From the NCBI GenBank assembly GCA_030550275.1, contig JAUQPR010000005.1, positions 19,899-83,898 on the forward strand: a stretch of DNA of 64,000 nucleotides, read 5' to 3'. The notes under the pieces were generated by a model that saw only the letters and a list, made by a program, of their open reading frames with translations, was not told the origin of the DNA and made no database searches. How positions within the stretch are numbered: the first letter of the stretch is position 1; each line of letters starts with the position of its first letter. This document shows, one piece after another, positions 48,668 through 64,000 of this stretch. Source of the stretch: Bacteroidota bacterium. GTDB taxonomy: Bacteria > Bacteroidota > Ignavibacteria > Kapaibacteriales > HRBIN21. The position numbers and the translations under genes are program-made.

Positions 48668-48929
48668 ATGTCCTCCAACCAGTCCGGCGTAGGCGAAATC
48701 CGCAAGAACATCATCGAAGCCGACCTGGTGGACCGCGCCATGGAGGCGGTGGAGCGGGACAACCCCTCCCTCAAGGGCGTCCTCCCCAAGGACTACGCGC
48801 GTCCGGCGCTCGACAAGACCCGTCTCGGCCAGCTCATAGACCTGATCAGCAACATCAAAGTCGGCGATGAGGAAAGCCGCTACAGCACCCTGCTCGACCC
48901 ATGCGAAGGTAGCACGCTGGAGGCAGACC

Positions 48930-48937
<8 letters not shown>
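48668..48937 (+). pseudogene. Second remnant of the old hsdM (HsdM_N second part), ends overlapping the start of the intact hsdM
   Basis: …[40 protein letters not shown]… corresponds to residues ~95–150 of HsdM proteins, alignable with the intact hsdM downstream. It diverges and stops at 48937. Confidence 0.5.
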
Positions 48938-50534
<1,597 letters not shown>

Positions 50535-50547
50535 AGGGCTGTAAGCG

Positions 50548-53500
50548 ATGAGTCCGCAAGTTTCATCTGGAGGAGCAGCCGCCGCCGGCGGTATGGATTT
50601 CCAGCACCGCGTTGCAGCCTGGGTAGCCGTCCACGTTCTCGCCGAAAAGGCTGCAACCCCTCCGTGGGACCTCCCCGCAGCCACGGTTCTTGAGTGGTTC
50701 CAATGTGAGACCGGCCATCCCGTTGACGATCTCCTCGTGAGAACCTCGGGCAGCGGGCTCGTTTTCTCTCAGGTCAAGCGCCGGCTCAGCCTCTCGTCGG
50801 ATGCAGCTTCGGATCTCGCATCCGCCCTCGATCAGTTTGTCCGCCAATTCATCACGTGTCACAACAAGAGCGGTGGATCACGCCCTACGGATCGCCCCCT
50901 TGATCCCGCAAGAGATCGGCTAGTGCTAATCACATCTTCCGTTAGCTCTGAGCCAATCCGGGGTCACTTCGCGACCGTCCTCCGTCGGGCACGAAACCTG
51001 ACCCCGGGTCAGGCCCTCGACGAAGCTGCCACCAACGACGAGGAGCGCAGGGCGTTTTCGGTAGTCCGGGAGCATATCCGCAGATCGTGGCAGGCGATCC
51101 TCAACGCCGAGCCGTCGGAGGCGGAGCTTCGCCAACTGCTTTCCCTGATCCGGATTCATGTTCTCGACGTTGAAGCCGAGGGGCCAAGCGAGCGGGAGGC
51201 GAAGCACGTGCTCCGCTCCGCAGTTCTGCGCGATCCCGACCAAGCGGACCAGGCATGGACCACACTAGTCACTTTGTGCGCGGGCTACGCGGCGCAGCGT
51301 TCCGGTGCCGATCGCGCTATTCTACAACGCGAACTCCTCAACGCGGGATGTGACCTCAAGGTCCCACGCAGTTACGAAGAAGACATTGAAAAACTTCGGA
51401 AGCATTCTTACCAGATTTTGTCTGCCCTCGGCCATCTTGCCCAAATCCGAGTAGGCTCAACGACGATCAGAATTCGTCGGGCGTGCACCGAAGCGCTGCG
51501 CCAGGCGGCTGAGGAGGGATCAATCCTCGTCACTGGTGAACCAGGTGCCGGGAAATCAGGGGCTCTCCACGACTTCGTCGAGGCGCTTCGTGACGGTGGC
51601 AGGGATTGTGTCCTCCTCGCCGTCGATCGGCTGGCCGCCCAGAGTCTCGGCCAGCTTCGGGAAGAGCTCGGCCTGGAGCACGAATTACCTGAAGTTTTTG
51701 AAAACTGGCCCGGCCTGCAACCGGCGTTCCTTGTAATCGACGCGCTGGATGCCGCTCGCGCGGATCCCGCGGCCGCAATGGTCCGTGATCTCATCCGCCA
51801 AGTGGTGGAAAGGAACGGGCGCTGGCGGGTGGTGGCCTCCATCCGCAAGTTTGATCTCCGTTATGGACCAGACATCCAGCAACTGTTTGCCGGAAATCCG
51901 CCGACGCAGTTTGCAGACGCTGAGTTCCAGCGGGTTCGACACCTGAATGTTCCGCGGTTTTCCGACGACGAACTCAGCCGGATTGGCTCGGAGTCTCCGC
52001 CGCTACAACGGCTCATTACCAACGCCCCTGCAGAACTCCGGGACCTCCTCCGCGTGCCGTTCAATCTCCGCTTGGTGGCGGAGCTACTCGGCGGAGGCGT
52101 CAGCCCGGACGAACTTACACCGGTAAAAACCCAGCTCGAGCTGCTGGATCGCTACTGGCGGCATCGCGTGGTGGGCTTCGATGGCCAAGGAGACGGGCGC
52201 GAGGCGATCTTGCGCGAGGTGTGCGAACGAATGGTGGAATCCCGTGTGCTCCGCGCAGACCGCGCCGCTGTCGCGCGCCCGGAGACGAGCGCCCTGCTCA
52301 ACGATCTCCTCAGTACGCAGGTCCTTATCGAGTGGCAGGCGTCACCGGACGCGCAACCTGACCGGTACACCCTCGCTTTCTCGCACCATGTTCTTTTCGA
52401 CTATGCGGTGGCGCGCCTTCTATTTCGAGGCGATCCCGAAAACGTCATGCACCGCCTTTCCGAAGACCCTGAGCTCGTGATATTCGTTCGCCCCAGTTTG
52501 GTTCTTCACTTCCGACACCTCTGGGACTCAAGTCCAGATCGTCACCCATTCTGGGAGTTGACCTTTCGGGTCATTGCTGACTCTGAGATTCCCGAAGTTG
52601 GGAAACTTATCGGCCCAGCTGTGGCTGCCGAGCTGGCTCGTTCCACTCGAGACCTAGAACCCGTCTGCGCAGCCCTTGAGCATGAGGATGAGGAAAAGCA
52701 CGGGCCTGCAGATGGCGCCATTCGCCACCTGGTCGGGGCTCTACTAGCTGGGATGGGGGGCAAGACTCTTGCAGGTCCCAATGCCGGTCCGTGGTGCGAA
52801 CTGCTGGAACGCGTCAGCCGGAGGCTCCGGCCATCGGTCGCTTACACCGTTCGAGCCCTGCTCGCAACCATGTGTGACCACCCTGAGAGCTTTACCCCCG
52901 AGCAGCGGACCGCCGCCGGACATACAGCGCGACGGCTTCTGGAGTTTGCATGGTCTCACGTGCCTAGGGATTCTTGGCTGGTGGTCCATGCGCTCCAGTG
53001 CGTTTGCCGAACGTTCGAGAGCGACCCCGCGGCATCTAGCCTGCTTATTCGCCGTTGTCTGGAGCCTGTGCACATTTCGGAGTTCGGCTTTGAAGAGATT
53101 CCTTGGCTGGCCCGAGAAGTTATACGGCTCATTAAGCTCGATCCGACATTAGTGGCGAGCATCTATTGCGCCGCCTTTGGCCACCAAGAGGAATCACAGG
53201 AGCCGACCCCCATCGGAGGCAGCCGCATCTTCCCTCTGGTTTCGAACCGCCGCCAGCACTATGAGAGCGCATTGTACCAGCTGGCCGAGTCCTTCCCCGC
53301 ATTCCTGGAAACGGCGCCAGAAGAGGCGACACGCACTCTTGTGCGTGTTCTGGAATCGTATGTCGGCCAAAGGCATTCTCAGCCCTTCCGTGAGACGGAG
53401 CAGGCGGTCTTCGACTTCCGTGATCAGCAAGCACGTCTGCTCGAAGATTACAGCTCCGTCTGGGACGAGGGAGATACCTACCGCGAAGAAGAGCCCATCA

Positions 53501-55536
53501 AGATGCTAGATGCCTTCCAGAACTTCCTGGAAGGACTAGCAACCGAAAAAGACAGCAAAAGCACGCTCCGTGCTTTGATCGGGATTTTCGTCTCGGAAAA
53601 CCAGCTCGCTGTTGCCTGGCGGCGGCTTCTTCTTGCGGGGGCCCGTTTTCCTGAAACCCTAGGCTTGGAGATATTGCCGCTCGCCTGGGCGGTTCCGATT
53701 CTTACGTGCCATGACACCACTGTGCCGGCTGGTGATTACCTCAAGGCAGTATTCCCGATCCTGCGAGGCAATCAGCGTCGGAAGATCGAACGGGCTATTT
53801 TGGGCATCCCTGACGCGATGCCGGCAGATCGGCGCGAGGAGGCCGAACAAGTTCGGGACCGGCTTCTCGGATGCCTGCCCCTCGCCGCCATCGTTACCGA
53901 CGAGGCGCACCAGAAATTAGCAGAGCTTCAAGCCCATAACGCTGTCCCACCTAATCAACCACCCGTGGGCTTAGAAGAGGAGTGGTTCGGCACTTACGGG
54001 GAGGAGGACTATCTCGAGGATCAAGGGGTCCCGGTCGAAGCCGAGGGAAACCGAAGGATCCGCGAGCTGGAGCGGCCGGTCAAGGAGTTCGCTGACCGGC
54101 ATCTCAACTCCACCCCTACCTTGGAAGAAGCCCACTCCGTGCTTCCGGCCCTGCGTGCCCTTTACGACGCTCTGGGTCGCGCCAACGCGGACGACGTACA
54201 CCCAAAGCAAAAGGACTATGCCTGGGGAATCCTCGCGCAGGGATGTGCGCGTATCGCAAGAGCCGAGGGTCTCTCCGGTGGCGAGGAGCCCGGCACGTTC
54301 ATAATGGCCGTTCTCCTCGAGGCGTGCCGCCACCATGAGCCGGTCCATGACCCTCAGTACGATGCCCAGTTCGACGAACATCCTTCATGGGGAAGCCCAG
54401 CAGCCAGGATCGACGCGGCCCAAGGGCTGATCATTCTGGCGAGTCACCAAGACTGCGCCACGCCATATGTCCTCAAAGCGATAGAAGCGCTAAGCGACGA
54501 CCCAGTTCCAGCTGTGCGCTATCAGATCGCTGCTCGCTTAGATGCCCTTTACCGGACGGCCCACGAGCTGATGTGGTCCATCATCGAGCGGCTGGCTCGT
54601 AAAGAGGCAAGCCGTGGAGTCCTTCAGGGACTGCTTGTCGGTCCCCTCAGCCGGCTAGTCGGCGCAGAACCCGATCGCGTGGCCAATGTTACGAAGGCCA
54701 TCTTCGAGCGGATCAGCGCCGGTCCTGGCGCGAACCGGGTCCGCGAGTTCGGCATGAGTATCCTCGCGGATCTCTACATCTGGCGCGATCATCCGCTATC
54801 CCGCGACGTAGTCCACGAGATCGTCTCGAATCCCGCCGGCTATCCCGCAGAGGCGGGTCACGTCTTGGGGCAACTTCGCAACCCCATCACCCACGGCCCA
54901 ACGGACCCCTCCGATCCCGAGGCTGACGCGATTCGCAGGCGGGCGCTGGAACTGCTCGAGCGTCTACTCCGCTCGTCACGAGACGGCCTCAAGGAGCTTG
55001 AAGGCCGTCATGCTGGGGTCGGCTTCGGCAAGTGGCCCCAGGCCGATCAGGAAACAGCTCAGTCGCTGATGCGTCTCATCGATGCCATCGGAAGGGAAGT
55101 CTATTTCGCCTCGGGAGCGTACGACGCCAAGAGCCAGGGGCAAGCACACGGCGTGCGTGAAGTCAGTCCTCAGTCCAAGCGGTTCTACCAGGAAGCCGGT
55201 GCGATCCTCGACGAGCTCACGGACGCACCCCTTCCCAGTGTCGCGCACCACCTGGTGGAGACCCTGGAGCACTTCATCCCCGTGGATCCCCGCGGTGTCT
55301 TCCTTCGCATCCACCGTGTGGTTTCAGCCGGGCAACAGGCAGGCTATCAGTACGAATCCATGGCCGCTGAGCTCATCGTCCGACTCGTCGAGCGCTACCT
55401 GGCTGAGTACCGGACGCTACTTCAGCAGGACGTCGCCTGTCGCAGGGCTCTGATCGAAGTACTGGATGTGTTCGTCAAGGCCGGCTGGCCGAGCGCGCGA
55501 AGGCTTGCGTATCGCCTGGAGGAGATTTTCCGGTAA
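50548..55536 (+). CDS. 1,662-aa NACHT/STAND-like P-loop NTPase with ~320-aa N-terminal domain and ~1,200-aa C-terminal helical-repeat region; candidate antiphage defense protein embedded in the type I R-M operon
   Basis: Single uninterrupted ORF, same strand, 13 nt after the hsdM stop and 15 nt before the hsdS start. Walker A ILVTGEPGAGKS (aa 326–337, nt ~51535) and NACHT-type Walker B FLVIDALDAAR (aa ~394–404). The long Leu/Ala/Arg-rich helical repeats include HEAT-like DDPVPAVRYQIAARLDAL. No obvious housekeeping homolog is recognisable. Confidence 0.6.
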   Translation: MSPQVSSGGAAAAGGMDFQHRVAAWVAVHVLAEKAATPPWDLPAATVLEWFQCETGHPVDDLLVRTSGSGLVFSQVKRRLSLSSDAASDLASALDQFVRQFITCHNKSGGSRPTDRPLDPARDRLVLITSSVSSEPIRGHFATVLRRARNLTPGQALDEAATNDEERRAFSVVREHIRRSWQAILNAEPSEAELRQLLSLIRIHVLDVEAEGPSEREAKHVLRSAVLRDPDQADQAWTTLVTLCAGYAAQRSGADRAILQRELLNAGCDLKVPRSYEEDIEKLRKHSYQILSALGHLAQIRVGSTTIRIRRACTEALRQAAEEGSILVTGEPGAGKSGALHDFVEALRDGGRDCVLLAVDRLAAQSLGQLREELGLEHELPEVFENWPGLQPAFLVIDALDAARADPAAAMVRDLIRQVVERNGRWRVVASIRKFDLRYGPDIQQLFAGNPPTQFADAEFQRVRHLNVPRFSDDELSRIGSESPPLQRLITNAPAELRDLLRVPFNLRLVAELLGGGVSPDELTPVKTQLELLDRYWRHRVVGFDGQGDGREAILREVCERMVESRVLRADRAAVARPETSALLNDLLSTQVLIEWQASPDAQPDRYTLAFSHHVLFDYAVARLLFRGDPENVMHRLSEDPELVIFVRPSLVLHFRHLWDSSPDRHPFWELTFRVIADSEIPEVGKLIGPAVAAELARSTRDLEPVCAALEHEDEEKHGPADGAIRHLVGALLAGMGGKTLAGPNAGPWCELLERVSRRLRPSVAYTVRALLATMCDHPESFTPEQRTAAGHTARRLLEFAWSHVPRDSWLVVHALQCVCRTFESDPAASSLLIRRCLEPVHISEFGFEEIPWLAREVIRLIKLDPTLVASIYCAAFGHQEESQEPTPIGGSRIFPLVSNRRQHYESALYQLAESFPAFLETAPEEATRTLVRVLESYVGQRHSQPFRETEQAVFDFRDQQARLLEDYSSVWDEGDTYREEEPIKMLDAFQNFLEGLATEKDSKSTLRALIGIFVSENQLAVAWRRLLLAGARFPETLGLEILPLAWAVPILTCHDTTVPAGDYLKAVFPILRGNQRRKIERAILGIPDAMPADRREEAEQVRDRLLGCLPLAAIVTDEAHQKLAELQAHNAVPPNQPPVGLEEEWFGTYGEEDYLEDQGVPVEAEGNRRIRELERPVKEFADRHLNSTPTLEEAHSVLPALRALYDALGRANADDVHPKQKDYAWGILAQGCARIARAEGLSGGEEPGTFIMAVLLEACRHHEPVHDPQYDAQFDEHPSWGSPAARIDAAQGLIILASHQDCATPYVLKAIEALSDDPVPAVRYQIAARLDALYRTAHELMWSIIERLARKEASRGVLQGLLVGPLSRLVGAEPDRVANVTKAIFERISAGPGANRVREFGMSILADLYIWRDHPLSRDVVHEIVSNPAGYPAEAGHVLGQLRNPITHGPTDPSDPEADAIRRRALELLERLLRSSRDGLKELEGRHAGVGFGKWPQADQETAQSLMRLIDAIGREVYFASGAYDAKSQGQAHGVREVSPQSKRFYQEAGAILDELTDAPLPSVAHHLVETLEHFIPVDPRGVFLRIHRVVSAGQQAGYQYESMAAELIVRLVERYLAEYRTLLQQDVACRRALIEVLDVFVKAGWPSARRLAYRLEEIFR

Positions 55537-55551
55537 TGGTAGCGAAGGTGC

Positions 55552-56775
<1,224 letters not shown>

Positions 56776-56780
56776 ACGCC

Positions 56781-59672
56781 ATGAGCATCGGCGCCGAACG
56801 GACCGCGGTGCAGAACCCATTCCTCCGCTACGCCGTGGAGGTGGGCTGGACCTACCTGCCTCCGGAGGAGGCGACGCGACTTCGCCGGGGGGAGACAGGC
56901 CTGGTGCTGCACGAGGTCCTCGTCCGCCAGCTTCAGGCATTGAACCCGGGCGTGGTGGACCACCAGCGGGCCGAGGACATCGCGGGGCGTCTGGTGCGCG
57001 TTCGTCCCAGCATCGAGGGGAATCTGGAGGCCTGGGAGTTCCTCAAGGGGTTGAAGACGGTCTTCATTCCGGAAGAGAGACGGGAGCGTAACGTCCGCCT
57101 GATAGACCCCGTACGTGTCGAGGCGAACTCGTTCCACGTGACGGACGAGCTTCCTTTTCAGAGCGGCACCCGGCGTATCCGGCTGGACCTTGTCTTCTTC
57201 GTGAATGGGATTCCGGTGATCGTGGTGGAGACGAAAGCTTCGAGGCACCTGGATGGAATGACCCGGGCACTCGAGCAGATCCGCCGTTATCACGCCGAAG
57301 GCCCCGAACTCATGGCGGTGGCGCAGCTCTACGCCCTCACGCACCTGGTTCAGTTCCTCTACGCCGCCACCTGGAGCCTTTCGCCCAAGGATCTCCTCAA
57401 CTGGAGGGACGAGCAGGCGGGTGACTTCGAGACTTTGGTGAAGACCTTCATCGCTCCGTCCCGCGTACTGCGGGTGCTCACGGAGTTCGTCCTGTTCGTG
57501 CGGCGCGATGGCGAGCTCTCCAAGGTGGTGCTGCGTCCCCACCAGATGCGGGCCGTTGAGCGCGTGCTCGCGCGAGCGCGGGACCCACACAAGCGTCGGG
57601 CACTTGTCTGGCACACCCAGGGCTCCGGGAAGACCTACACGATGATCACCGTCGCCCGGCGCCTGATTCAGGACCCGGCATTCGGAAACCCCACGGTCCT
57701 CATGCTCGTGGACCGCAACGAACTGGAGCAGCAGCTCTTCACCAACCTCGAGGCGGTTGGTCTCGGGCATGTCGAGGTGGCGCAGAGTAAGAGGCACCTT
57801 CAGGACCTCCTTCGCTCAGACCGTCGGGGGATCATCGTCTCCACCATCCACAAGTTCGAGGGGATCCCGGCCAACATCTGCACGCGCACGAACGTCTTCG
57901 TGCTGGTGGACGAAGCACACCGCTCCACGGGCGGCGATCTGGGCAACTACCTCATGGGTGCGCTACCTAATGCGACCTACATCGGCTTCACCGGTACCCC
58001 GATAGACCGAACCGCCTACGGCAAAGGGACGTTCAAGGTCTTCGGCGTGGACGACCCGCCTCACGGATATCTCGACCGCTACTCCATCCGCGAGTCCATC
58101 GCCGACGGTACCACGGTACCGCTGCACTATGCGCTCGCCCCCAACGAGCTCCTGGTGGACCGCGACACCCTCGACCGAGAATTCTTGGCTCTGACCGAAC
58201 TCGAGGGAGTGAGTGACATCGAGGACATCAACCGCGCCCTCGAACATGCGGTCACCCTTAGGAACATGCTCAAGTCGCCGGAGCGCATGCGGCGAGTCGC
58301 GGAGTTCGTGGCGCGCCATTTTCGGGAAAAGATCGAGCCGATGGGCTACAAGGCCTTCCTGGTCGCAGTCGACCGAGAGGCCTGTTGCCGCTACAAGGCT
58401 CTGTTGGACGAGTATCTCCCCCCGGACTACTCGAGGGTGGTGATCAGCCCGGCCGCCAACGACCCTCCCGAACTTCGCGCCTATCATCTGAGCGAGGACG
58501 AGGAGCGACGCATCCGCGAGGCCTTCCGCAAACCGGACGAGCTTCCGAAGATTCTCATCGTGACCGAAAAGCTCTTGACCGGGTTCGACGCGCCGATCCT
58601 CTACTGCATGTATCTGGACAAGCCCATGCGCGATCATGTGCTGCTGCAGGCGATCGCGCGAGTCAATCGGCCGTACGAGGACGAGACCGGTCGGCGCAAG
58701 CCCTCAGGCTTTGTCCTCGATTTCGTGGGCATCTTTGAAAACCTGGAGCGCGCCCTGGCCTTCGATTCTCAGGACATTCAGGGGGTAGTGGAGGGCCTGG
58801 ACGTCCTGAAGGAGCGGTTTCGGCAGCTTATGGAACAAGGGCGCCGCGACTACCTCGGCATCGTGGCAGGGCTTTCAGGTGACAAGGCGGTGGAAGCTGT
58901 CTTGGAGTACTTCCGTGACCCGGACGGGCGTGACAAGTTCTACCGTTACTTTCGAGAGCTCGAGGAAGTCTACGAGATCCTCTCGCCCGATGAATTCCTT
59001 CGACCGTTCCTCGATGACTACCGTGCCTTGAGCGAGATGTACCAGGTCCTGCGCTCCAGCTATGAGGCCCGCCCCATCGCCAGCCTGGATTTCCTCAAGA
59101 AGACCGCTCGCCTTGTCCAGGAGCACACACATGGGTCCATGGTTCGGGAGCCACCGGCGATTTACGGGATCGACGTAGAGACGCTCGGTCGCTTGGCGCA
59201 GGACGACGCGCCGGATGCGGTCAAAGTATTCAACTTGCTCAAGGCGATTCGGCAGATTGTAGAGGCGCAGGCTTCAGAGCAGCCCTATCTGATCTCCATT
59301 GGGGAGCGGGCGGAAGCCATTGTGCAGGCTTTTCAAGAGCGACAGATCACCACAGAGGAAACGCTCCGGCAGCTCGTGGACGGACCGGTGCAAGAATTGC
59401 AGGAAGCGGAGTCTGCCCGAGCCAGCATGGACCTCTCGGCAGAAGCCTTCACGATCTTCTGGCTGCTCAGCCGCGAAGGAGTTCAGGAAAGCGAGGCGGT
59501 TGCCCGTCAGATTGCAGACGTACTGGACCGATTCCCACACTGGCACACGAGCGAGCAGCACGAACGCGAGGTGAGGAGGGAAATCTACAAGGCGCTCCTG
59601 CCGACCGGCGTCGCGGACCCGGTGTCTGTTGCTGACCGGCTACTGCAGGTCCTCCGCGAGTCGCACCGATGA
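56781..59672 (+). CDS. hsdR: Type I restriction enzyme endonuclease/helicase subunit
   Basis: N-terminal nuclease (…VFFVNGIPVIVVETK…), SF2 helicase motifs (TQGSGKT; DEAH as VDEAHRS; …QAIARVNR…), C-terminal HsdR-type helical domain. 5 nt after hsdS. Confidence 0.9.
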   Translation: MSIGAERTAVQNPFLRYAVEVGWTYLPPEEATRLRRGETGLVLHEVLVRQLQALNPGVVDHQRAEDIAGRLVRVRPSIEGNLEAWEFLKGLKTVFIPEERRERNVRLIDPVRVEANSFHVTDELPFQSGTRRIRLDLVFFVNGIPVIVVETKASRHLDGMTRALEQIRRYHAEGPELMAVAQLYALTHLVQFLYAATWSLSPKDLLNWRDEQAGDFETLVKTFIAPSRVLRVLTEFVLFVRRDGELSKVVLRPHQMRAVERVLARARDPHKRRALVWHTQGSGKTYTMITVARRLIQDPAFGNPTVLMLVDRNELEQQLFTNLEAVGLGHVEVAQSKRHLQDLLRSDRRGIIVSTIHKFEGIPANICTRTNVFVLVDEAHRSTGGDLGNYLMGALPNATYIGFTGTPIDRTAYGKGTFKVFGVDDPPHGYLDRYSIRESIADGTTVPLHYALAPNELLVDRDTLDREFLALTELEGVSDIEDINRALEHAVTLRNMLKSPERMRRVAEFVARHFREKIEPMGYKAFLVAVDREACCRYKALLDEYLPPDYSRVVISPAANDPPELRAYHLSEDEERRIREAFRKPDELPKILIVTEKLLTGFDAPILYCMYLDKPMRDHVLLQAIARVNRPYEDETGRRKPSGFVLDFVGIFENLERALAFDSQDIQGVVEGLDVLKERFRQLMEQGRRDYLGIVAGLSGDKAVEAVLEYFRDPDGRDKFYRYFRELEEVYEILSPDEFLRPFLDDYRALSEMYQVLRSSYEARPIASLDFLKKTARLVQEHTHGSMVREPPAIYGIDVETLGRLAQDDAPDAVKVFNLLKAIRQIVEAQASEQPYLISIGERAEAIVQAFQERQITTEETLRQLVDGPVQELQEAESARASMDLSAEAFTIFWLLSREGVQESEAVARQIADVLDRFPHWHTSEQHEREVRREIYKALLPTGVADPVSVADRLLQVLRESHR

Positions 59673-60001
59673 AACCGATGAAGAAGCGAAAGGATCGACT
59701 CAGCTGGGCGCCCCTTGAAGACATCGTCCCGGTGGAGGTCTTCAAGGCGGAGGTGCGTGCCTGGGCCGAGCGCATTGGCGTCCAGCCGCGTGAGATTCAC
59801 GTTCGGCCGATGAAGCGAAAATGGGCGAGCTGCTCCTCGAACGGCCGCCTGACGTTCGATCTTGACCTTTTGCGCCAGCCCTCGAAGGTTCGGGCAGAGG
59901 TCATCATTCACGAGCTGCTCCATTTGAAGCTTCCGAACCATGGCCGCCTGTTCCGCGCCCTTTTGAAGGCCTACAAAGCACAGCAATTGGAGAGCGATTA
60001 G
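59669..60001 (+). CDS. DUF45 / M48-like (WLM/SprT-type) zinc metallopeptidase
   Basis: HExxH motif [10 protein letters not shown]. 110 aa. ATGA overlap with the hsdR stop. This family commonly follows hsdR genes. Confidence 0.7.
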
Positions 60002-60026
60002 GAAACATCCGGCGATCCGCGACGAC

Positions 60027-60749
60027 GTGGCCTTCTTCCAAGCGGTGCGAGCAGCCCTGACAAAGCGAGCACCGGCAGAGGAGCGGCCGGAGGAGGAGCT
60101 GGACCACGCCATCCGGCAGATCATCTCGCGAGCTCTCACGCCGGAAGGTGTCATCGACCTCTTCTCCGCCGCAGGCTTGAAGAAGCCGGACATCTCCATC
60201 CTCTCCGATGAGTTCCTGGCCGAGGTCCGGGGCATGCCGCAGAAGAACCTGGCCGTGGAGCTCCTGCGGAAACTCCTGGAGGGCGAGATCAAGGTGCGCC
60301 GTCGGAAGAACGTGGTGCAGGCGCGGTCGTTCGCGGAGATGCTGGAGCAGGCCATCCGCCGCTACCAGAACCGGGCGGTGGAGGCAGTGCAGGTCATCGA
60401 GGAGCTCATTGCCCTAGCCAAGGAGATGCGCGAGGCGGACCGGAGAGGCGAACAACTTGGCCTTTCCGAAGAAGAACTTGCTTTCTACGACGCCCTGGAA
60501 ACCAACGACAGCGCCGTAAAGGTCCTGGGCGAGCCGACCCTAAAGCGAATTGCGCGGGAGCTGGTGGAGACGGTGCGGCGGAACGTGACCATCGACTGGG
60601 CCGAACGGGAGAACGTGCGGGCGCACCTGCGGCGCCTCGTGAAGCGGGTGCTGCGGAAGTACGGCTACCCGCCCGACAAACAGGAGAAGGCCACCCAGAC
60701 CGTCATGGAGCAGGCAGAAGTGCTTTCTGTGGAGTGGGCAATGGCATGA
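60027..60749 (+). pseudogene. Orphan HsdR C-terminal domain (DUF3387-like) fragment, probable remnant of a displaced type I R-M system
   Basis: Matches the C-terminal helical domain of HsdR proteins (…[30 protein letters not shown]…[24 protein letters not shown]…[10 protein letters not shown]…). Opens with GTG, the first valid start after an in-frame TGA at 59964. The intact hsdR upstream already has its own C-terminal domain. Confidence 0.55.
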
Positions 60750-60760
60750 GAGGGGCCTCG

Positions 60761-61375
60761 AACAACGGCGTGCAGCGGACGGCGTCTCGCCGCCGCTGAA
60801 CTGGAGCGTTCGCTACCCCGGATACTTCCACGCAGTCAAAGGTACAGAACCAGATCGCGCCGGTGATCCATGTTGTCAAGCATTGCTTGCTGTTCTGCGC
60901 CTGAACTCAATCTGGCTGTACAGAATCGGCAGGACGGTAAAGCCTATCGGTCTCCTCCAGCTCGGAAGGAGACAGCTTGAAGAACCTTCTTCTTTCCCAC
61001 CTTACAGCTCGACTTCGCGTGGGGGAGCAAGCCTGCAAGTCACATCGGACTTTTGCTTGACAGTCGCAGAGCCGTTTTTTAAATTTGCAATGTAGGGGTG
61101 TGCAGTACATACTTGACCCCGACGGCAAGGGGGTTCAAAGCCCAGTCGACGCCTTGTGAACTAGAGGCGTGCCTGACGGCAGTCGGGACTACGCGCCGAA
61201 GTGTAGGTCACGTAGGCGGACTTCAGATGGCAACCAGATTACACAACAACCATCTGAGGAGCAAAGATGATGGAAACAAAGATGATGGAAACAAAAAGTT
61301 GACAACTCACCCGCCAGCGCATGTTATGCCGACAACTTGCGGTATAAGCGTGTTAGGTGGAAACCATACAATAGT
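60761..61375. repeat. Direct repeat copy 1 (~615 bp)
   Basis: About 97% identical to 62757..63375 with an offset of ~1,996–2,000 nt. Contains a tandem 15-mer AAAGATGATGGAAAC ×2 (61264..61293) followed by TTGACA (61299..61304). GC is lower than the flanking genome. Confidence 0.8.
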
Positions 61376-61954
61376 TCGGCGTCATCAATTGCTTCCAAGG
61401 GGTTCCCATGAGCTACGAATTGTCCCCTATGCTTCCCCCAAAGCGACCGTCTGTACTCGTCACGGTGCTCAGATGGGTTGCGGTGTTACCAGCTGCTATT
61501 GGTGCCTGGATAGTAGTTCAACTCTTAGTTATCTTGGCGAACGCAGCGGTTATACCTCGATGATCGGATTGGTGGTTGGAGTTAATCAATAGTGCCGCGT
61601 CCTCTTATGCTTTTGTGTACGCCGACGCAGCTACTGCCCCAAACACAACTTCATCGTAGGAATTGTCGTTGCTATTCTCTACGGCATATTCATGGTCGTC
61701 ATCATCACTGCGGGTTTCTTTATCGAAACGTCCGTCCCGCTCTGGCGGCTTGTACTCTCGGGCGTTATCAGTCTAGTCGCGACCATCGCTGCCGTCGTAA
61801 AATTGCGCGAAGAATACTGACGGGTGCGACGCCGAACAAATCGTTGGACGCGAGCGGCGGGAGCGCTTCTCGCAACTAGCTTGGTGCGGCGAAGGATGCT
61901 TTGATTCCCGCCGCCGCGTCAACTCAATCGTTAGGCGGCTATGAGGATCGCGCG

Positions 61955-62434
61955 ATGAACGTAAAGGACACGCTGGCCGGGCTCGGTGGCCTCCTCATCA
62001 TGGGAGCCTTCCTCGTCGTCGGCATCGCAATCGCCGGTGTCTTTATCTTCGGTGCGGCTTGGGCGAGTACGAAGCTACTGCCGTGGTTCTCCGTTCTGAC
62101 ACGGGTGGCCTTCGGCATCGTTGTCTTCATCCTTTTGCCCCTTGCGATTCCGAAAGCGACTCGCGGATTCTCAAGCGTGGCGCTTTTCGTCGCGTCCTAC
62201 GTGTTCGGCGCAACGCTCTGGATGAAGGGCCTCTTGTTGACGCTCGCAATCTGGGGCGTGGGCGCTGTCTTCATCGGTCTCTTCCTCGCGGGCGTCGGCG
62301 TAGTACCGATCGCGATGCTGGCGACCCTGATCAAGGGCATGTGGGGCCAGCTCGTCGAACTCGTGCTGCTCGCGATCATGACCTTCGGCAGCCGGATCGG
62401 CGCCATGGCCCTTGCGGAAAGCCTAGAAGGCTGA
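61955..62434 (+). CDS. Hypothetical polytopic membrane protein
   Basis: ATG at 61955 is preceded by GAGGA. 4–5 TM helices (…LLIMGAFLVVGIAIAGVFIFGAAW…). Lies between the two direct repeats. Confidence 0.4.
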   Translation: MNVKDTLAGLGGLLIMGAFLVVGIAIAGVFIFGAAWASTKLLPWFSVLTRVAFGIVVFILLPLAIPKATRGFSSVALFVASYVFGATLWMKGLLLTLAIWGVGAVFIGLFLAGVGVVPIAMLATLIKGMWGQLVELVLLAIMTFGSRIGAMALAESLEG

Positions 62435-62437
62435 GGC

Positions 62438-62758
62438 ATGCGGCGAATCTGGGTTCCACAACTCCTTGCCAGCTTGATGCTGCTCTGGGCCCTCAACCCG
62501 GAGAACCCGTATGGGTACTACATTCTGCTTCGCTGGGTCTGCTGCGGCGTCTTCGCCTACCTGGCTTTCAAGGCACTTGATCAGGGGCATCAGGGCTGGG
62601 TCTGGGTTCTGGGAATCACGGCCGCCGTGTACAACCCGATCTTTAGAGTGCACCTCACGAGGGAGATCTGGTCTGTTGTCAATGTCGTCACGATAGGAAT
62701 CGCGGTGGCGTCAGTCTTCGCCATCAAGTTCAAGGACGAGAAGCACGACACCGCCTAA
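62438..62758 (+). CDS. Hypothetical small membrane protein
   Basis: 106 aa with 3 TM helices. Starts 4 nt after the upstream gene, so probably co-transcribed. Confidence 0.4.
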   Translation: MRRIWVPQLLASLMLLWALNPENPYGYYILLRWVCCGVFAYLAFKALDQGHQGWVWVLGITAAVYNPIFRVHLTREIWSVVNVVTIGIAVASVFAIKFKDEKHDTA

Positions 62759-63375
62759 CAACCGGTTGCAGCGGACGGCGTCTCGCCGCCACTGAGCTGG
62801 AGCGTTCGCTACCCCGGATACTTCCACGCAGTCAAAGGTACAGAACCAGATCGCGCCGGTGATCCATGTTGTCAAGCATTGCTTGCTGTTCTGCGCCTGA
62901 ACTCAATCTGGCTGTACAGAATCGGCAGGACGGTAAAGCCTATCGGTCTCCTCCAGCTCGGAAGGAGACAGCTTGAAGAACCTTCTTCTTTCCCACCTTA
63001 CAGCTCGACTTCGCGTGGGGGAGCAAGCCTGCAAGTCACATCGGACTTTTGCTTGACAGTCGCAGAGCCGTTTTTTAAATTTGCAATGTAGGGGTGTGCG
63101 GTACATACTTGACCCCGACGGCAAGGGTGTTCAAAGTCCAATCGCCGCCTGGTCAACTAAGCGCCTGCCTGACGGCAGTCGGGCCTACGCGCCGAAGTGT
63201 AGGTCACGTAGGCGGACTTTAGATGGCAACCAGATTACATAACAACCATCTGACTGAAGAGCAAAGATGATGGAAACAAAGATGATGGAAACAAAAAGTT
63301 GACAACTCACCCGCCAGCGCATGTTATGCCGGCGGAAAGCGGCAGAGGCGCGTTAGGTGGAAACCAGATAGACTA
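62757..63375. repeat. Direct repeat copy 2 (~619 bp)
   Basis: See copy 1. It has the same internal 15-mer tandem (63264..63293) and TTGACA. Copy 2 carries a 4-nt insertion (…CTGACTGAAGAGC vs CTGAGGAGC) and a few substitutions. Confidence 0.8.
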
Positions 63376-63410
63376 TAGTTATGCGCCGTAGCCACAAGTC
63401 CGAATCGGCG

Positions 63411-64000
63411 ATGGTCATAGTTCTTATGATGGAGAAAAGCGCTCGGCGAATTGTTCCTCTTCTCCTGATTCAGTTTCTCCTCGCCACTGAAACCAGAGCC
63501 CAATCTATCGCCGACATAGCAGAGCGCGTCGGGAAATCAGTAACGATGATCGTTACTTACGATGCGACCGGTTCGGTCATAGGACAAGGGAGCGGCGTGT
63601 TTATAAACAAAAACGGACTTGTGCTTACCAATGCCCATGTGCTTGAAGATGCATACTCCGCCGAAGTTATCTCCGACCTTGGAACTTTTGACAGAATCAC
63701 GATTGTCTTTCGTGACCCAACGCGTGATCTAGCCTTGATTCAACTGAAAACTAATCAAGCCAGTCCGATAAGTTTTGCCAGCGATCCTAACTTCAGGCCG
63801 GGGGATCGAGTTGTCGCAATCGGCAACCCATTAGGTCTTGAGAAAACCGTGTCCGATGGTTTGATAAGCGGCATCCGTTTGACAAATGATGGAGTCGAAC
63901 TCATTCAAACTACCGTCCCAATTTCGCCGGGCAGTAGTGAGGGAGTTCTGCTAAACACATCGGGCGAACTAATCGGAATAACCTCCTCCACGCTTAAAGC
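63411..64000 (+). CDS. Trypsin-like (S1 family) serine protease, 3' end outside window
   Basis: Hand-translated as MVIVLMMEKSARRIVPLLLIQFLLATETRAQ… (signal peptide), His motif LTNAHVL, Asp motif TRDLALIQL, Ser motif PGSSEGVL. GC ~45%, far below the window average. Confidence 0.65.
   Translation, partial: MVIVLMMEKSARRIVPLLLIQFLLATETRAQSIADIAERVGKSVTMIVTYDATGSVIGQGSGVFINKNGLVLTNAHVLEDAYSAEVISDLGTFDRITIVFRDPTRDLALIQLKTNQASPISFASDPNFRPGDRVVAIGNPLGLEKTVSDGLISGIRLTNDGVELIQTTVPISPGSSEGVLLNTSGELIGITSSTLK

Follow-up and report, generated by a model that had tools for sequence, protein, structure and literature searches.

Near the downstream end of a 64,000-nt stretch of DNA from a Bacteroidota bacterium (contig JAUQPR010000005.1, nt 19899 – 83898; the whole stretch is termed the window below), two direct repeats of about 615 bp are found at 60761 – 61375 and 62757 – 63375. 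A fragment of a restriction gene, hsdR (60027 – 60749), stands immediately upstream of the first copy, as context rather than as part of the repeat; two membrane-protein genes lie between the copies, and a serine protease gene follows the second. The region is very probably an integron cassette array without an integrase gene, i.e. of the CALIN type (cluster of attC sites lacking an integron-integrase), in which a relic of the integron platform recurs between the cassettes. Each repeat would, in all likelihood, be composed of the attC site of the preceding unit and a module of about 565 bp, designated M.

The pair was first noticed in a sequence-only reading, and a blastn search of the unit against the window recovered both copies (60761 – 61366 vs 62757 – 63366, E=0) with an overall identity of 94.4% over 610 nt, slightly below the ~97% given there. 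The first 300 – 340 nt are 98 – 99% identical, and substitutions are concentrated at 61103 – 61260. No third copy was found, nor anything else above chance in the 64-kb window. Copy 1 begins 11 nt past a TGA (60747 – 60749) and copy 2 overlaps a TAA (62756 – 62758), in agreement with the statement that the repeats start after stop codons, and both are AT-richer than the window as a whole, as had also been reported (52 – 53% vs 64% G+C). The doubled 15-mer, AAAGATGATGGAAAC ×2, was confirmed in both copies (61263 – 61292 and 63263 – 63292); the doubling is polymorphic, with a single unit in most related copies, and integrons with an integrase gene (intI) have GACGATGAGAAC in the homologous stretch. 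A promoter-like TTGACA-N17-TGTTAT was likewise found again at 61299 – 61327 and 63299 – 63327, while a stronger site (P1, see below) had gone unlisted. The 70-aa and 73-aa open reading frames (ORFs) inside the repeats look non-coding, as had been supposed. No homologue of the 70-aa ORF was found among 5.8 billion proteins, there was no Pfam match, and related copies show 1-nt frame-breaking indels and an in-frame TGA in this region.

Related contigs (L001 – L024) were retrieved for comparison. An exact-protein look-up with the DUF6804 protein encoded between the repeats gave 10 contigs from 8 samples, one of them 2.9 Mb long, and all 10 have the repeat on either side of these genes. Scanning metagenome contigs with a 20-nt pattern gave 3 more, including L013, which has four M copies within 6.6 kb (82 – 86% identity) with unrelated genes between them and ordinary attCs interspersed. 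The copy number, a matter raised by the sequence-only reading, is thus two in the window, three each in L001 and L003, and four in L013. That reading had also considered an assembly artefact, which can be set aside because at least 8 samples yielded the same layout in independent metagenome contigs, that of 2.9 Mb among them. Every copy has the same orientation, begins past the stop of the preceding gene, and ends before the next gene. The exact repeat pattern had no match in 185,579 species genomes, two degenerate patterns had none in viral contigs, and blastn gave none in plasmid and phage collections.

The proposed units of the array are as follows:

60757 – 60814, + strand: attC_1, predicted attC site, 58 nt; R''-like CTCGAAC, R' GTTCGCT; crossover between G60808 and T60809
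60809 – 61374, + strand: M1, putative integrase-deleted platform relic; starts TTCGCT at the attC crossover, ends ...CAATAG at the attI-type crossover
61375 – 61930, + strand: cassette A (predicted), disrupted gene for a small membrane protein (ORFs 61408 – 61563 and 61692 – 61820); closes with attC_A
61831 – 61936, + strand: attC_A, predicted attC site, 106 nt; R'' GCCGAAC, R' GTTAGGC; crossover between G61930 and T61931
61931 – 62804, + strand: cassette B (predicted), membrane-protein genes 61955 – 62434 (159 aa) and 62438 – 62758 (DUF6804 according to Pfam)
62753 – 62810, + strand: attC_B, predicted attC site, 58 nt; R'' GCCTAAC, R' GTTCGCT; crossover between G62804 and T62805
62805 – 63378, + strand: M2, second putative platform relic; crossover between G63378 and T63379
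63379 – 64000, + strand: start of cassette C (predicted), trypsin-like serine protease gene (ATG at 63381) continuing past the window end

attC sites and gene cassettes

The 5' part of each repeat can be assigned with considerable confidence, from its sequence and relatives, to an attC-type site, and its recombination by an integron integrase is predicted. Over its first 58 nt, each repeat aligns with attCs of arrays adjoining an intI (GCCTAACAAC..TGCAGCGG...), and related ordinary arrays hold 58 – 63-nt attCs homologous to this 5' part without the rest of the repeat. attC_B (GCCTAAC AACCGGT TGCAGCGGACGGCG TCT CGCCGCCACTGA GCTGGAGC GTTCGCT, 62753 – 62810) matches, box for box, attCs of such arrays at L019 1728 and L014 12087, with that at L023 9272 being close, and its R'' box contains the TAA stop of the DUF6804 gene. 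attC_1 can be aligned base for base with attC_B and with the site at L019 1728, which belongs to a real array. The remaining site, attC_A, was located by a motif-and-fold scan for R'' and R', and L022 likewise has it behind the same ORF. The three lengths (58, 106 and 58 nt) lie inside the range of 57 – 141 nt known for attC sites (PMC12901181).

When compared with the R'' consensus RYYYAAC, attC_B is exact, attC_A shows one departure, and attC_1 fits only in its ..GAAC. The R' box of attC_A agrees exactly with GTTRRRY, while the GTTCGCT of attC_1 and attC_B keeps the GTT but not the RRRY. As the bases past the G belong to the adjoining M, a mismatch at these positions is to be expected, but it still counts as a departure. 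In the bottom-strand folds of both attC_1 and attC_A, an R-box stem (CGAAC/GTTCG in attC_1) is separated by an unpaired spacer from an L stem, which contains one bulge in attC_1 and two bulged bases in attC_A (z=-2.4 for the latter fold). For attC_B, the folded bottom strand shows a bulged base in the central stem but no R-box stem, the R' half of the site being derived from M. The junction between attC_B and M appears recombinant, because the adjoining TTCGCT is not the complement of GCCTAAC. attC_1 lies directly behind the hsdR fragment, and the GTTCG with which M opens can pair with the R'' of this site (..CGAAC), which makes attC_1 look like the cognate site of M.

attC_A divides what had been described as a single 1.4-kb module into two units, and the DNA between the repeats is, to judge from these boundaries, a pair of mobile gene cassettes. 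A genuine attI-type crossover at the end of M predicts that the first bases of a cassette are the complement of its own R'' box. This holds exactly in 5 of 5 cassettes for the six bases past the crossover, the pairs being GTTCGGC/GCCGAAC (cassette A) and GTTAGGC/GCCTAAC (cassette B) in the window, and GTTAGGT/ACCTAAC, GTTAGCC/GGCTAAC and GTTGGGC/GCCCAAC in L013. Among the proposals of the sequence-only reading, att-like boundaries of a mobile module came closest, as the repeats carry predicted attC and attI sequences with cassette DNA between, but it missed the integron nature of the locus, the third attC (attC_A), and the intI relic within the repeat. The target-site duplications for which the repeat edges were to be inspected find no place there, as the edges correspond to recombination crossovers instead.

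The gene content is varied. Two membrane-protein genes do lie between the repeats, as reported, of which the second belongs to DUF6804 and the first (61955 – 62434) has no Pfam match; the cargo genes are not paralogous, contrary to an earlier suggestion. In cassette A a TGA occurs after 51 codons, where L007 has an 83-aa ORF. Cassette B is also found behind intI-attI in L007, where the same cassette genes are preceded by a tyrosine-recombinase gene and the last 140 nt of the repeat, not the whole of it. A protease gene after copy 2 was correctly recognised (Trypsin_2, E=1e-29), although its G+C content is 49% and not ~45%; its product has a full length of 318 aa in L003 and L004 and is similar to the RT-Protease_XI protease domain of PADLOC (E=7e-18). 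Cargo in relatives includes a type II methyltransferase with a restriction enzyme, HicB, and small membrane proteins, all of them usual contents of cassettes. The type II pair occupies the space between repeats 1 and 2 in L001 (6454 – 7951) and L003 (6451 – 7948), with PADLOC E values of 2e-143 and 1e-61, and is followed in both by half an attC fused to an internal hsdR fragment.

Parts and origin of module M

Homology among all M copies begins and stops at G/TT points (the slash marks the crossover) whatever the attC type or downstream cargo, and the left boundary occurs behind at least 3 different attC types. The M parts of the two repeats are identical at 545 of 577 columns (94.5%). The two copies share a haplotype without counterpart in the orthologous copies of other strains, which points to gene conversion within the genome, or else to a recent duplication. 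The following parts can be distinguished:

60815 – 61050, + strand: conserved spacer (~245 nt), the best conserved part of the repeat
61057 – 61085 (63053 – 63081 in M2), + strand: P1, predicted promoter, TTGACA-17-TAAATT; promoter scan 10/12
61106 – 61159, + strand: intI relic, apparently the last 17 codons and stop of an integron-integrase gene (YILDPDGKGVQSPVDAL-stop; ...GVQSPVDAL-stop)
61299 – 61380, + strand: attI-type region with P2, core-like boxes, and the crossover between G61374 and T61375
61299 – 61327 (63299 – 63327 in M2), + strand: P2, predicted promoter, TTGACA-17-TGTTAT, where the cassette promoter Pc is expected
62805 – 63378, + strand: corresponding parts of M2, with P1 at 63053 – 63081, intI relic 63102 – 63152, 15-mers 63263 – 63292, P2 63299 – 63327, and a GTTAGGT box 63352 – 63358

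The origin of M is indicated by chromosomal integrons in the related contigs (L014 – L019, L022 – L024), in which intI is co-directional with a row of small ORFs. Repeat positions ~524 – 632 recur once per integron, directly after intI, and positions 12 – 64 recur after cassette ORFs, while no other part of the repeat recurs. Over the last ~110 – 140 nt, the repeat is 75 – 95% identical to the sequence directly after intI in L007, L014 – L018, L022 and L023. A comparison of 27 sites, located either after intI or at a repeat end, gave the shared pattern ...TTGACA-N17-T(G/C)TTATGCCG...GCGTGTTAGGTGGAAAC...(A)TAG/TT, with conservation reaching to the ...AG/TT or ...GG/TT crossover and cargo-specific sequence immediately beyond. 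The attI region has three direct core-like boxes, GCGTGTTATGCC and GCGTGTTAGGTG upstream and the crossover box GTTCGGC at 61374 – 61380, of which the first two are kept in all loci of this comparison. The series GTTATGC, GTTAGGT and crossover box recalls DR1, DR2 and the R box of attI1, and integrase binding is predicted. The end of M, AAACAATAG/TTAGGC, also resembles the attI1 minimum, AAACAAAG/TTRRRY (PMC12901181).

In the window this attI-type region does not adjoin an intI, as only the 17-codon relic is left, while the homologous sequence elsewhere does. The relic matches the C-terminus of the L007 integrase in tblastn (10/17 residues identical, 15/17 similar, ending at the stop), and its DNA is collinear with the intI-attI segments of L007, L014, L015 and L017. 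The product of the L007 recombinase gene has thousands of relatives, the closest of which is named 'integron integrase' by the Joint Genome Institute. P1 is 85% identical to L023 9620 – 9653, which lies ~65 nt upstream of the intI ATG as read from the alignment, and ~25 nt of 5' untranslated region (UTR) after P1 also line up with L023 by eye. The intI deletion in M runs from the 5' UTR to about codon 300, with an apparent short microhomology at the fusion point (...AGTACA / ...TCTACA, read from the alignment). L023 itself retains a near-full-length but frameshifted intI, with an attC ~290 nt upstream of the intI promoter and more attCs downstream. In L022, intI and attI are followed by two ORFs and then by a truncated second intI (residues 157 – 318) with its own attI and cassette A. 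Directly upstream of this second intI, at L022 9940 – 10000, are 3 – 4 tandem copies of GCACTAGAATTTTC.

P1 and P2 are consensus matches to promoters, with predicted activity. The P1 consensus is kept in all copies, while P2 is missing from copy b of L013. The -10 region of P1 is always TAnnTTTG (TAAATTTG, TAAGTTTG, TAATTTTG, TATGTTTG) in the window, the related copies and L023 9620 – 9653. This is presumably the -7 motif of Bacteroidetes-type promoters, the host belonging to the same superphylum, and the TTGACA-17 spacing fits a classical sigma-70 site equally well. Between the intI relic and the attI region, ~70 nt (61160 – 61232) have no counterpart in L007, copy c of L013, or the integrons with intI, and look like an insertion specific to most M copies.

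The 245-nt spacer has column identities of 0.86 – 0.97 across 10 copies from two lineages and is not coding, judging from related copies and a protein search. The motif GTACAGAAYC occurs twice within it as a direct repeat ~88 nt apart (60843 – 60857 and 60931 – 60945), the second copy inside the palindrome CTGTACAG, a candidate protein-binding site. A decayed intI N-terminus was considered for this stretch (alignment of QALLAVL..LYRIGR with QALSALL..YRYVLGR, p ~0.016 by shuffling) but found no support from a hidden Markov model or from DNA similarity, and was dropped because such a remnant would be expected after the intI-type promoter, whereas the spacer precedes it.

Proposed mechanism and competing explanations

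M is best described as a platform from which intI would have been deleted, leaving the upstream stretch, P1, ~25 nt of 5' UTR, the last 17 intI codons, and attI with P2. It would occupy the place of a cassette, extending from an attC crossover to an attI-type crossover at which the next cassette starts. Recombination between attC and attI by an integron integrase could release M as a circle whose junction resembles attI, and this circle could then enter other attCs, attI x attC being the reaction of cassette insertion (PMC4889954; bioRxiv 10.1101/2024.07.02.601686). Alternatively, two attCs could have exchanged unequally, which would duplicate M, and a subsequent attI x attC excision would give the same end state. 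Each cassette or cassette pair would then stand directly behind its own attI and promoter(s), i.e. in 'first position', and no distant Pc would be needed; M may thus drive expression of the cassettes. The copies within one genome would now be homogenised by gene conversion, and the 565-bp repeats would offer portable homology through which strains could exchange cassettes in a RecA-dependent manner. A platform with co-directional intI (promoter, intI, attI) would formally be a cassette, and it is possible, but only tentatively suggested here, that M spread as a mobile 'attI plus promoter' unit in which the 245-nt stretch is functional, e.g. as a control region.

Several observations weigh against the interpretation as an array with recurring platform relics. 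No intI was found in the 64-kb window by tblastn with integrases of the lineage. All of the intI genes that were translated contain a frameshift or stop (L007 1 – 578, L014 9740 – 10732, L015 9500 – 10462), and those of L016 – L019 and L022 – L024 were called split or truncated or were matched in separate pieces. Since no intI seen in the lineage looks intact, present-day integrase activity is doubtful. M may also have spread by plain homologous recombination. The R' boxes of attC_1 and attC_B and the R'' box of attC_1 are off consensus, and the attCs were called by homology, motifs and folding, not by the covariance model of IntegronFinder. The 245-nt spacer, although best conserved, has no detectable homologue in the related integrons. 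The -35 box of P2 is not conserved in L007 (TTAATA), and its '-10' overlaps the GTTATGC box and is possibly an integrase-binding repeat instead.

Of the competing explanations, the one that survives best, though very unlikely, is an ordinary tandem duplication of an intergenic segment (promoter or leader) that homologous recombination produced and maintained, site-specific recombination playing no part. The haplotypes shared by the window copies and absent from orthologous copies would suit a recent duplication as well as gene conversion, and no intact intI was seen among the relatives (three translated and broken, the rest split or truncated). A duplication of this kind would not explain why the unit is bounded by G/TT crossovers on both sides, why it stands behind at least 3 unrelated attC types and before unrelated cargo, or why it holds an attI and an intI relic. 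The differences between strains, which lie amid >95% identical flanks, fit either a site-specific or a homologous-recombination route. M copies may now be maintained and shuffled by homologous recombination, perhaps because the intI genes of the lineage are broken.

A duplicated promoter or leader was also among the suggestions of the sequence-only reading, and in part this stands, as each copy has promoter-like sites facing the downstream genes, one of which has its homologue in the intI promoter of a related integron. A structured regulatory RNA made from P1 (a small RNA or cis leader) as the reason for conservation of the repeat is improbable, even though P1 is a strong consensus promoter in all copies, the 210 nt downstream of it fold somewhat better than shuffled sequences (z=-2.1), and hicB would be read from P1 in the L013 copy without P2. 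No Rfam family matches (a scan of 56000 – 64000 at E<=1 gave nothing relevant), the RNAalifold covariation term is positive, i.e. unfavourable, with many broken pairs, and the stretch, which is accounted for as intI relic plus attI, shows lower conservation than the spacer preceding P1. Such an RNA could coexist with the integron interpretation. A scan for tRNA and tmRNA genes found only two distant tRNAs.

It is highly improbable that each 615-bp repeat is one giant attC, with R'' at its 5' end, R' at its 3' end, and a centre of ~500 nt. The ends are indeed complementary in several copies (GCCTAAC at 62753 vs GTTAGGC past the repeat in L001 and L002), and cargo-specific sequence starts only past the 3' end of the repeat. 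This complementarity is accounted for by the ordinary cassette rule, however, and the first 58 nt already form a complete attC with its own R' and crossover, homologous to the 58 – 63-nt attCs of arrays. The 3' part is homologous to the attI region adjoining intI, and the length would be far outside the range known for attC sites (see above).

The MITE-like element proposed by the sequence-only reading (miniature inverted-repeat, i.e. non-autonomous, transposable element), or a fragment of an insertion sequence, merits almost no weight: the unit is multi-copy, ~0.6 kb long, and lower in G+C than the genome, but by eye it has no terminal inverted repeats (TTCGCT... and ...CAATAG), a repeat finder located the sole inverted pair of 58000 – 64000 outside it (59129 – 59951), it ends at crossovers and not between flanking duplications, its flanks differ among copies, it holds no transposase-like ORF, all copies share one orientation within cassette arrays, and it is absent from the plasmids, phages, viral contigs and 185,579 species genomes mentioned above. 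A diversity-generating retroelement with template and variable repeats was rejected, as mismatches between the copies are not adenine-specific, and so was a group II intron, a class known to target attC sites, as neither strand has an Rfam intron match.

Comparison with known integrons and the adjoining restriction genes

A complete integron was not recovered in the window, as tblastn found no functional intI beside the array. The three attCs between 60757 and 62810, with no intI, agree with the definition of a CALIN (Cury et al. 2016, PMC4889954), and the likeness extends to the co-orientation of these sites with the ORFs over 2.1 kb, the lack of intI in 64 kb, and cargo of small genes of unknown, membrane or defence function. 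The phylum Chlorobi is on record as carrying integrons, and Pc cannot drive CALIN cassettes (PMC4889954). For the host, this phylum is indicated by NCBI proteins named 'Chlorobiota bacterium' in clusters (>=90% identity) that contain UvrA and an oligopeptide-binding protein of the window; among the species genomes the best UvrA match reached 46% identity. CALINs are by definition without platform parts, however, whereas each cassette group of the window stands behind a relic that includes attI and promoter-like sites.

The closest parallel to this relic is found in the ΔattI-type cassettes (Partridge et al. 2009; Gonzales Machuca et al. 2026, PMC12901181), which also have attI-derived sequence within an array, ending at the crossover, with similar end motifs (AAACAAAG/TTRRRY there vs AAACAATAG/TTRRRY here). 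Units with attC on one side and attI on the other are recombined by IntI1, and in the ΔattI-type, which belongs to clinical class 1 and class 2 mobile integrons, a resistance gene has a short partial attI (8 – 12 nt, in one case 238 nt) in place of its attC (PMC12901181). The units of the window fall outside that definition, as the attC is complete and kept, and is followed by a unit of ~565 bp. Unlike the ΔattI-type, this unit comprises a complete attI region, intI tail, intI promoter and 245-nt stretch, contains no ORF, occurs up to four times per array, and is chromosomal, in an environmental member of the Chlorobiota, where a type I restriction locus ends.

In sedentary chromosomal integrons of the Treponema type, intI is reportedly in cassette orientation. 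This resembles L007, L014 – L019 and L022 – L024, where intI is co-directional with the cassettes and attI lies just past its stop, and a further likeness is that the attCs of one lineage resemble each other; the window differs in having no intI. To our knowledge, repeated integrase-deleted platforms inside an array have not been described for this type.

The array also recalls the anti-phage cassette stores of Darracq et al. 2024 (bioRxiv 10.1101/2024.07.02.601686), since it is located in a defence island and has defence-type cargo in relatives (the type II restriction-modification pair, HicB, and the protease with its similarity to a domain of a defence system). Individual promoters are found in some Vibrio cassettes, but most cassettes are promoter-less and silent when distal, and expression needs a move to the single attI (bioRxiv 10.1101/2024.07.02.601686); here, by contrast, attI and promoter(s) appear to have been copied to the cassettes. 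A full-text literature search found no description of a platform relic repeated between cassettes, which is not proof of absence. Elements of this kind are known, but the layout appears to be new.

In the standard model, an integron has one attI and one cassette promoter, and distal cassettes are silent until the integrase moves them forward. Such silent cassettes underlie the 'biobank' view of integrons, anti-phage genes included. The layout of the window suggests that an integron platform can behave as a cassette itself. If M is indeed a mobile unit, it would convert a silent stockpile into an array whose cassettes all occupy a first position, where they are expressed and can be exchanged. 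With a relic carrying attI and promoter(s) in front of each cassette, constitutive expression of stored genes would become possible, new cassettes could enter at several sites, and long identical repeats would permit cassette exchange by homologous recombination after loss of the integrase. For annotation, ~0.6-kb repeats at the edges of defence islands can be integron parts, and searches based on intI or attC spacing may miss or misread repeats of this kind.

The restriction gene fragment upstream of the array has the following assignment:

60027 – 60749, + strand: orphan 3' fragment of hsdR, 240 aa; T1RH-like_C, PF11867, E=5e-106, profile positions 94 – 327 of 329

This ~740-bp 3' segment shares ~92% DNA identity with the 3' ends of otherwise different hsdR genes in L001 – L004, and looks like an anchor for the swapping of whole restriction loci. 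It is also present as extra orphan copies downstream of the array in L001 (12301 – 13034) and L002 (11602 – 12329). Within the locus 56781 – 60749, the R subunit (963 aa) has HSDR_N, SWI2_SNF2 and T1R_D3-like domains but no T1RH-like_C match, and an ORF for a YgjP-like metallopeptidase (59669 – 60001) lies between its gene and the T1RH-like_C fragment. Further upstream, a gene for a protein of 1662 aa (50548 – 55536) stands between hsdM (48867 – 50534) and hsdS (55555 – 56775) and matches the PADLOC candidate family PDC-M54A end to end (2321 bits). A patch of low G+C (47 – 56%) at 55400 – 56800 covers hsdS inside a locus of otherwise 60 – 65%. Past the protease cassette, L003 (12005 – 17762) and L004 (8565 – 15955) have a gene for a phospholipase D (PLD)-nuclease/SNF2-helicase followed by an MmeI/Eco57I-type methyltransferase gene, so that the array lies between two restriction-type systems.

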